Shown: positions 37,420-37,729, counted from the first letter of the stretch. The stretch is DNA of 54,367 nucleotides from a virus (IMGVR_UViG_2531839448_000005:1-54367); one strand, 5' to 3'. The notes: generated by a model not told the origin, from the sequence alone. Made by a program: numbers and translations.

Positions 37420-37494
37420 TGGAGCGGGTAGCGGGAATCGAACCCGCATCATCAGCTTGGAAGGCTGAGGTAATAGCCATTATACGATACCCGC
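37420..37494 (-). tRNA. tRNA-Gly (anticodon UCC), glyT-like
   Basis: 75 nt cloverleaf, anticodon loop CUUCCAA, 3' CCA encoded. Confidence 0.8.
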
Positions 37495-37497
37495 ATA

Positions 37498-37573
37498 TGG
37501 TGCCGACTACCGGAATCGAACTGGTGACCTACTGATTACAAGTCAGTTGCTCTGCCTACTGAGCTAAGTCGGC
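37498..37573 (-). tRNA. tRNA-Thr (anticodon UGU), thrU-like
   Basis: 76 nt cloverleaf, anticodon loop CUUGUAA, 3' CCA encoded. Confidence 0.8.
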
Positions 37574-37575
37574 AC

Positions 37576-37652
37576 TGGACCGCCACCGGGGACTCGAACC
37601 TCGCACACTCAACTTAAAGGGTTGACGCTCTTTCCTGATGAGCTAGTGGCGG
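37576..37652 (-). tRNA. tRNA-like, anticodon loop CCUUUAA (putative UUU/Lys, non-canonical C33)
   Basis: 77 nt; 7 bp acceptor stem, TTCGAGT T-loop, CCA end; one mismatch in the T stem. Confidence 0.45.
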
Positions 37653-37653
37653 C

Positions 37654-37729
37654 TGGTGGCCCTTGCTGGATTTGAACCAGCGACCTGGCGATTATGAGTC
37701 GCTCGCTCTCACCACTGAGCTAAAGGGCC
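37654..37729 (-). tRNA. tRNA-Ile2/Met (anticodon CAU), ileX/ileZ-like
   Basis: 76 nt cloverleaf, anticodon loop CUCAUAA, close to E. coli ileX as recalled. Confidence 0.8.

Follow-up and report, generated by a model that had tools for sequence, protein, structure and literature searches.

Is a tRNA gene that has lost the universal U33 still a tRNA gene? This question is raised by the viral sequence IMGVR_UViG_2531839448_000005 (54,367 nucleotides, hereafter the window), in which four tRNA-type genes follow one another in a lambdoid prophage and in which the second of these genes, here called X1, has the anticodon loop CCUUUAA with C at position 33. ARAGORN calls X1 a tRNA-Lys(UUU). The reading that we prefer, to which we give a probability of about 0.5, is that X1 is the relic of a phage tRNA-Arg(UCU) that no longer decodes and that sits beside three working tRNAs for rare codons.

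ARAGORN found exactly four tRNA genes at this locus, all on the minus strand (from 37729 to 37420; Table 1) and separated by spacers of only 1, 2, and 3 nucleotides (nt). All four score above the gathering threshold of 29 bits of the Rfam family RF00005, with E-values between 5e-14 and 3e-6 in a search of the whole window. A first-pass annotation, made from the sequence alone, had already placed four head-to-tail tRNA genes here, between Q and the lysis genes, and had noticed the odd loop with its C33. ARAGORN and Rfam agree on the genes, the RF00005 alignment gives the same stem and loop, and the PGAP annotation of an identical locus agrees on the position; the strand is corrected here to minus. 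As a whole, the cluster belongs to a familiar type, the lambdoid tRNA operon downstream of Q.

A trivial answer would be that the loop is a sequencing or assembly artefact of a normal tRNA. This can be dismissed. X1 is present in 798 of 5426 complete E. coli genomes (~15%), where 279 copies (35%) are at least 99% identical to that of the window and the other 519 are close variants (474 at 95–99% and 45 at 90–95% identity). It also occurs in more than 130 viral and metagenomic contigs and in deposited phage genomes. C33 is therefore not a sequencing error. (A metagenome scan with a 16-mer from the X1 anticodon arm returned mostly chance matches, 108 of them unrelated.)

X1 aligns over its full length to RF00005 as a canonical cloverleaf, with stems of 7, 4, 5, and 5 bp, the anticodon stem UCAAC/GUUGA, and the loop C32-C33-U34-U35-U36-A37-A38, in which the purine at 37 is present. 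The copy in the window keeps U8, A14, G18-G19, the T loop UUCRANY, and an encoded CCA; besides C33, its T stem contains a single A.C mismatch, and the discriminator is U73. In the superfamily alignment, 98.3% of the cells of the cloverleaf are paired and five pairs have two-sided changes; none of 500 shuffles reached the observed values, and slid controls gave 29–54%. X1 and genuine tRNAs cannot be told apart by minimum-free-energy folding, as ileZ, ileX, lysT, and argN also lack a minimum-free-energy cloverleaf.

The origin of X1 does not lie with the tRNAs for lysine. Its best global match is the argN gene of Shiga toxin (Stx) phages, a tRNA-Arg(UCG), with 62 of 77 positions identical (the next matches have 50–52), and lysT is outside the six best matches, no closer to X1 than any other tRNA. 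X1 and argN have in common the acceptor stem CCGCCA- (C1-G72), the D arm GCUC-AUCRGGANA-GAGC, U73, and CCA, and X1 occupies the position typical of the argN family, immediately after ileZ in the cluster between Q and the lysis genes. This position, slot 2, is occupied in other E. coli and Shigella prophages with the same four-gene architecture (e.g., loci L128, L137, and L222) by a canonical-looking tRNA-Arg(UCU), to which X1 is identical at 66–68 of 77 positions. The whole anticodon stem UCAAC/GUUGA is shared, and the loops (CCUUUAA in X1 and CUUCUAA in the Arg tRNA) differ only by U33C and C35U. The tRNA-Arg(UCU), with U33 and C35, is a normal reader of AGA; the window copy of X1 differs from it further by the A.C mismatch in the T stem. 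On these comparisons, X1 is not a Lys tRNA by descent; the simplest history derives it, by mutation, from a phage tRNA-Arg(UCU) in the argN family, an origin that the first-pass annotation had missed.

Could such a molecule still decode? For tRNA-Lys(UUU) to read its codons well, both N6-threonylcarbamoyladenosine at position 37 (t6A37) and the modification of U34 are needed. X1 departs by its C33 from the set of nucleotides that makes a t6A37 substrate (C32, U33, U36, A37, and A38), and U33C abolishes the formation of t6A37 by E. coli TsaBCDE on a test tRNA (PMC8887486). X1 would, given its C33, lack t6A37 in E. coli. A natural C33 in a loop of 7 nt is found, as in X1, in the initiator tRNA-Met of multicellular eukaryotes, but there the modification enzymes tolerate C33, whereas the t6A enzymes of E. 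coli do not (PMC8887486). As for aminoacylation, the anticodon is the main element of Lys identity and A73 is also needed, other bases at 73 lowering the acceptance of lysine, while the Arg set consists of A20 (the main determinant for the E. coli arginyl-tRNA synthetase, ArgRS), C35, and U or G at 36 (PMC9976931). X1 has U34-U35-U36 but U73 and, from the Arg set, keeps A20 and U36 but has U in place of C35. Since C35 has been lost, X1 belongs to the argN family by descent but is no longer an Arg decoder, and, to judge from its nucleotides, it probably does not decode lysine in the normal way. The earlier description of the odd species as a pseudo-tRNA or an unusual decoder was a fair one. A shifted reading of the loop as a UUA ochre suppressor was rejected, as no alternative 5-bp stem puts U at position 33.

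Nevertheless, the UUU anticodon invites another explanation: X1 could be a working Lys tRNA on an Arg scaffold, charged by the lysyl-tRNA synthetase via UUU and evading anticodon nucleases (AriB of PARIS, Old of P2, and perhaps PrrC), which would keep Lys codons readable late. UUU is indeed shared with the host tRNA that AriB, P2 Old, and PrrC target; Lys(UUU) and Thr(UGU) are the prime targets of PARIS, and both anticodons occur in the operon. The X1 loop, which is nearly invariant, is one position away from the CUUUUAA of the host tRNA-Lys(UUU), and the parts outside the loop are those of a different molecule: the host tRNA has U33, A73, U16, and the anticodon stem GUUGA/UCAAU, and X1 differs at all of these, its anticodon stem and D loop being completely different. 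Among the mapped determinants of cleavage, U39A abolishes it and A41C and U16C impair it (PMC12409363); X1 has G39-U40-U41 and C16. P2 Old needs paired CNG motifs at 28-30/40-42, with tRNA-ThrU as the foremost case (PMC12445682); argN has CAG/CUG at this place, and the compensatory 30-40 change in the stem of X1 and of tRNA-Arg(UCU) removes both CNG motifs. Moreover, Lys identity depends mainly on UUU, and in a human system it can be conferred by transplanting this anticodon (PMC9976931).

Such evasion has precedents. The tRNA-Lys(UUU) of T5 and a phage tRNA-Thr(UGU) have been shown to decode and to give rescue, against PARIS AriB and P2 Old, respectively (PMC11464382, PMC12409363, PMC12445682). 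X1 resembles these tRNAs in having the targeted host anticodon together with substitutions at 39–41, at 16, and in the CNG motifs. However, the known evasion tRNAs are, according to these reports, working decoders that stand in for the cut host tRNA, whereas X1 has C33, which blocks t6A37 in E. coli, U73 instead of A73, and signs of decay in the population (see below). The order of events also differs, in that the resistant features are older than the UUU anticodon: the resistant stem and C16 were inherited from the Arg(UCU) ancestor and were not gained together with UUU. Nor is the operon as a whole an evasion kit, since its Thr gene has the cleavable anticodon arm of the host, and against P2 Old a tRNA-ThrU of the host type protects little or not at all. 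An evasion role for the Thr and Gly tRNAs themselves was rejected for the same reason, their anticodon arms being those of the host. All in all, a working and nuclease-resistant Lys tRNA appears unlikely.

The three other genes have a clearer status. The Ile2 gene is identical at 76 of 76 positions to the ileZ gene of Stx2 phages, an identity that had escaped the first-pass annotation, and at 68 of 76 to ileX of E. coli K-12; its anticodon stem begins with an A.C opposition (27-43), which is G.U in host ileX, and it has a compensatory U-A for C-G at the sixth pair of the acceptor stem. A tRNA-Ile2(CAU) reads AUA once its C34 has been converted to lysidine. Of the 76 positions of the Thr gene, all but one agree with K-12 thrU; the exception is a U20-to-C change in the D loop, and the anticodon arm is identical. 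The Gly gene matches glyT at 73 of 75 positions, the differences amounting to one compensatory pair (C6-G66 to U6-A66), and this 6-66 pair is polymorphic among clusters, always covarying. The likeness to ileX, thrU, and glyT had been recognized from the start, but the "several" differences then reported turn out to be 8/76, 1/76, and 2/75. In the host operon thrU-tyrU-glyT-thrT, tyrU lies between the two genes concerned; in the phage, only 3 nt separate the Thr gene from the Gly gene, and both tyrU and thrT are missing.

It had also been proposed that all four tRNAs support A-ending codons. When the genes of this type of prophage are compared with 41 K-12 genes as the codon-usage reference, ATA is enriched 2.2–5-fold, ACA 2.1–3.6-fold, and GGA 2.2-fold, which bears out three quarters of the proposal. 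AAA is already the major Lys codon of the host, and the late genes show no enrichment of it (odds ratio of 0.99); the proposal therefore fails for the odd gene. In the same comparison, the Arg codons AGA and AGG are over-used 5.7–8.2-fold and 6.6–11.6-fold. The codon bias thus fits ileZ, the Thr gene, and the Gly gene, and it would have suited the Arg(UCU) ancestor of X1, but it does not suit a Lys(UUU) gene: with AAA flat and AGA and AGG over-used, the change that gave X1 swapped a useful tRNA for a superfluous one.

Could the superfluous tRNA have been put to use in recoding? X1 might insert Arg at AAA, by way of A20, or it might act as a hypomodified reader of UUU type that alters the −1 frameshift at A-AAA-AAG in the tail genes G/GT. 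A20 and U36 are indeed retained, and in a near-identical prophage the G/GT overlap has the slippery sequence AAAAAAAAG right before the stop of G, with T in the −1 frame. However, C35, which is a strong ArgRS determinant, has been lost, no link was found between the presence of X1 and the type of slippery site, and misincorporation would be harmful. The idea is conjectural, and we regard it as very improbable.

The variation among natural copies of X1 points to a relaxed constraint. In 58 clusters of the X1 type, X1 has 16 segregating sites in 77 nt (nucleotide diversity, pi, of 0.028), compared with 6 in 60 (pi 0.004) for ileZ and 9 in 61 (pi 0.010) for the Thr gene. Among 132 copies of X1, 71 are intact, 28 have U8C (usually with C11U and C4U), 13 have a 1-nt deletion in the D stem, and smaller classes have G53A, C26A, G73A, or multiple changes. 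In about 40% of the sampled copies, a conserved position or pair is broken by a change at U8, in the D stem, or in another stem, which also argues against the nuclease-resistant Lys tRNA considered above. Within the stems, about 7 changes keep the pair and about 8 break it, a near balance that gives no information on purifying selection for structure. In a 66-nt form, the 3′ half of the anticodon arm has gone while the GTCA-CCC / C33 signature is kept; this form extends the decay series of X1 and shows that decay is continuing.

Several observations weigh against decay. One is a matter of sampling: the X1 copies share descent and were collected via exact-match anchors, so that the counts just given are indicative only and do not represent independent events. 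Intact X1 is still the commonest form (54% of the sampled copies and 35% in complete genomes), inducible phages carry it, and the loop CCUUUAA is altered only once in about 70 copies that were retrieved independently of X1's own sequence. In the 39 loci with an alignable upstream spacer, X1 has the same pi as tRNA-Gly (0.014), 4-fold below the 0.058 of the non-promoter spacer next to it. This is an intermediate result; both flanks are mosaic (pi ~0.35) and make a poor neutral baseline, of which only the upstream spacer could be used. In addition, the differences between X1 and argN include compensatory changes at 7-66, 27-43, and 30-40, with the full cloverleaf kept.

These observations lead to the question of whether slot 2 has been kept for something other than decoding. 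A survey took in everything from the end of ileZ (3′) to the start of a thrU-type gene (5′) in one genome per species and in IMG/VR, which gave 133 copies in 39 variants. The canonical-looking tRNA-Arg(UCU), with the loop CUUCUAA and the stem UCAAC/GUUGA, accounts for about 34 copies in E. coli and Shigella, and X1 for about 70. Buttiauxella gaviniae (L135, 131-242) has the loop CAUUUAA, a second nominal UUU with a non-U at 33, which again does not favor simple decay. Other Enterobacteriaceae have a form of 72–74 nt with a loop of 5–6 nt, here called X2, in Ile-X-Thr-Gly clusters of Pseudescherichia, Rosenbergiella, Enterobacter mori, Yokenella, and others (L127, L129, L131, L136, and many IMG/VR loci, e.g., L025 5520-5627, L032, L084, and L152); X2 had no close match among deposited phage genomes. 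Finally, slot 2 can be wrecked in three kinds of ways: a fusion of the 5′ half of argN to the 3′ half of argO with an unpairable acceptor stem, 66-nt forms, and long inserts in the anticodon region (L113/L019/L040; L018/L055/L015/L060; L041/L067/L109).

The X2 loops include UUUAU, UAAAU, AUGAU, CCAGGU, and CACGAU. A loop of 5–6 nt cannot decode, and yet the scaffold is kept: the acceptor stem, the D arm, and the T arm are nearly invariant over 16 variants, and four variants have an identical scaffold with four different loops. A minimum of 11 events in the 6 loop columns, as against 11 in the 68 columns of the scaffold, means a rate per site more than 10 times higher in the loop (p = 3e-7). 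This contrast, in a sister of X1, is a further point against X1 being a mere relic, and it hints that slot-2 RNAs are perhaps functional without a canonical anticodon loop.

One possibility, which overlaps with the relic, is therefore that X1 does not decode but is kept as a functional tRNA-shaped RNA, either as RNase P punctuation between ileZ and tRNA-Thr or as a decoy to which enzymes acting on tRNAs would bind. In its general form, X1, the Buttiauxella CAUUUAA gene, and X2 would all be selected non-decoding RNAs (decoys or sponges for the tRNA-targeting enzymes of defence systems, or RNase P punctuation), and X1 would not be dying at all. Consistent with this, the X1 acceptor-stem changes that reach an appreciable frequency (C2U, C4U, and C71U) all keep pairing, and the frequent disruptive ones are in the D arm. 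RNase P by itself separates closely spaced tRNAs in E. coli (PMC2190699, PMC7049720), and the authors of the PARIS work raise the possibility that effectors are also held by phage tRNAs in non-productive complexes. However, the expression and processing that this explanation requires are those predicted from the operon layout, the partner of a decoy is hypothetical, the D-stem deletion and U8C are tolerated at 10–20%, some clusters have only the 66-nt remnant, and the conservation of the X1 scaffold may just reflect its youth. A selected non-decoding role for X1 is, in our opinion, doubtful, and the same goes for the extension to slot 2 as a whole.

We therefore return to the relic of a tRNA-Arg(UCU) and to how it may have come about. 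The tRNA operon, which has a putative sigma-70 promoter of its own, is probably transcribed independently and would also lie in the path of Q-antiterminated late transcription. With genes only 1–3 nt apart, the precursor would need to be cut by RNase P. The products ileZ, the thrU copy, and the glyT copy would supply readers for AUA, ACA, and GGA, which the phage uses 2–5 times more than the host does. In the phage tRNA-Arg(UCU), U33C and C35U would have removed both the universal U33 and the main anticodon determinant for ArgRS, and created a nominal UUU. X1 has then most likely lost decoding and is now drifting, and what preserves its tRNA scaffold may be no more than that RNase P has to recognize it in order to free ileZ at the 3′ end and tRNA-Thr at the 5′ end. 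In this account, the gene calls, the homologies, the variation among copies, and the codon usage are observed, whereas the activity of the promoter, the route of processing, and the loss of function are deduced.

The closest known system is the ileZ-argN-argO cluster of Stx2 phages of the 933W type, whose gene names are those of GenBank annotations; on ileZ, argN, and argO, nothing relevant was found in the literature collection that was searched. This cluster is in the same slot, downstream of Q and a terminator and upstream of the lysis genes, with the same promoter layout. The first gene is the same at 76 of 76 positions and the second is homologous (62/77), although the argN loop is CUUCGAA (UCG) where that of X1 is CCUUUAA; argO, however, is replaced in the window by the copies of thrU and glyT, and no toxin genes follow. 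In Stx phages, stxAB occupies the place that corresponds to the spacer of the window at 36830-37419.

What difference does the status of X1 make? Intact X1 is labelled "tRNA-Lys" in RefSeq and in several phage records, whereas the annotators of phage vB_EcoS-689R5 did not call it, and no PGAP tRNA annotation was found on the X1 variant copies among those listed in E. coli genomes. Taken at face value, the label misleads counts of phage tRNAs, analyses of codon compensation, and lists of candidate "anti-PARIS/PrrC tRNA-Lys" genes. The locus also illustrates how a lambdoid tRNA operon changes, with an invariant ileZ, the capture of host thrU and glyT, and a slot 2 in which the canonical anticodon loop has been lost again and again. 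Were the RNAs of slot 2 truly kept for a non-decoding role, they would be a new kind of player in the conflict over tRNAs between phage and host, and the X2 lineage with its hypervariable loop is the most interesting by-product of this analysis.

Table 1. Features in and around the tRNA operon of the window.
Feature	Coordinates	Strand	Evidence
tRNA-Ile2(CAU), phage ileZ	37654-37729	minus	ARAGORN Met/Ile2(CAU); Rfam RF00005, 72.5 bits; PGAP, tRNA-Ile
X1, tRNA-like gene of the argN family, loop CCUUUAA	37576-37652	minus	ARAGORN Lys(UUU); Rfam RF00005, 44.4 bits
tRNA-Thr(UGU), thrU copy, reads ACA	37498-37573	minus	ARAGORN; Rfam RF00005, 71.4 bits
tRNA-Gly(UCC), glyT copy, reads GGA/GGG	37420-37494	minus	ARAGORN; Rfam RF00005, 65.6 bits
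Antiterminator Q gene	37924-38619	minus	open reading frame; PGAP "bacteriophage antitermination protein Q" at the 100%-identical locus of E. coli CV839-06
pR′-like late promoter, TTGCAA-17-TATATT, overlapping the end of Q	37912-37940	minus	consensus scan, 9/12 matches
Strong tR′-like intrinsic terminator	37837-37860	palindromic, no strand	10-pair stem, 5 G-C, T run
Putative sigma-70-type promoter of the tRNA operon, TTGCAA-17-TATTAT	37739-37767	minus	scan match
Weak terminator-like hairpin with TTTTAT, 24 nt past the last tRNA	37378-37396	minus	scan; 8 pairs, 3 G-C
Stronger intrinsic terminator, AACCGCC...GGCGGTT then TTTTTATT	37132-37152	minus	scan match; 270 nt further on

The surroundings of the operon are those of a lambdoid prophage. 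The window is 99.96% identical to such a prophage located beside tRNA-Ser(CGA), next to mtfA, and its genes follow one another along the minus strand as DUF968, RusA, Q, the four tRNAs, two holins, an M15 endolysin, HNH, terminase, HK97-type head, and tail genes. The Q gene is directly upstream of the tRNA region. Judging by its position relative to Q and to the terminator that follows some 50–75 nt downstream, the pR′-like sequence would serve as the late promoter, and this terminator may be, by the parallel with tR′ of lambda, the target of Q.

The tRNA operon appears to have its own promoter, which the first-pass annotation had not mentioned. The −10 hexamer ends 10 nt before the first tRNA and is followed by a G+C-rich discriminator, CCTGCGCCC. 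The layout of −35, 17-nt spacer, −10, and discriminator recurs in front of ileZ in families whose sequences otherwise diverge, with TTGCAG and TTGATT as variants of the −35 hexamer, and because of this conservation we take it to be a real, dedicated promoter. Its G+C-rich discriminator resembles those of the stable-RNA promoters under stringent control.

At the other end of the operon, a terminator had been predicted after the last tRNA. A hairpin is indeed present there, but it is weak, and the stronger terminator is farther downstream, with the holin genes beyond it. The sequence of about 600 nt between the tRNAs and the holin (36830-37419) is free of genes in the PGAP annotation of the identical locus and contains three more terminator-like sites besides the hairpin adjoining tRNA-Gly.

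Elsewhere in the window, the tRNA-Ser(CGA) (53387-53476) adjoins a frameshifted integrase gene and mtfA and is likely the attachment site of the prophage. A sok antitoxin RNA (Rfam, 120 bits) beside hokD and a DicF RNA (76.7 bits) beside dicB, at 41293-41468 and 48911-48962, are standard cargo of prophages of the Qin/Rac type.

An element of about 15 kb (17617-32654) is inserted in the large-terminase gene of the prophage, which is thereby split into two pseudogene fragments. It has genes for an integrase, helix-turn-helix regulators, BRO-N, an Icd-like protein, a DUF927 primase, SSB, and ProQ/FinO, together with major capsid, protease, portal, connector, HNH, TerS, and TerL genes of its own, and it looks like a capsid-forming satellite of the phage-inducible chromosomal island (PICI) type. 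The near-identical prophage of CV839-06 is without this element. These two prophages also differ at the overlap of the tail-chaperone genes G and T (window ~10759, minus strand), where the slippery run of A in front of G has 7 A in the window and 8 A in CV839-06 (L126 31952). In CV839-06, G ends right after AAA-AAA-AAG and T is in the −1 frame, whereas with 7 A, G and T form one open frame in the window; the 7-A run is either a homopolymer error or the mark of a fused G-T gene.

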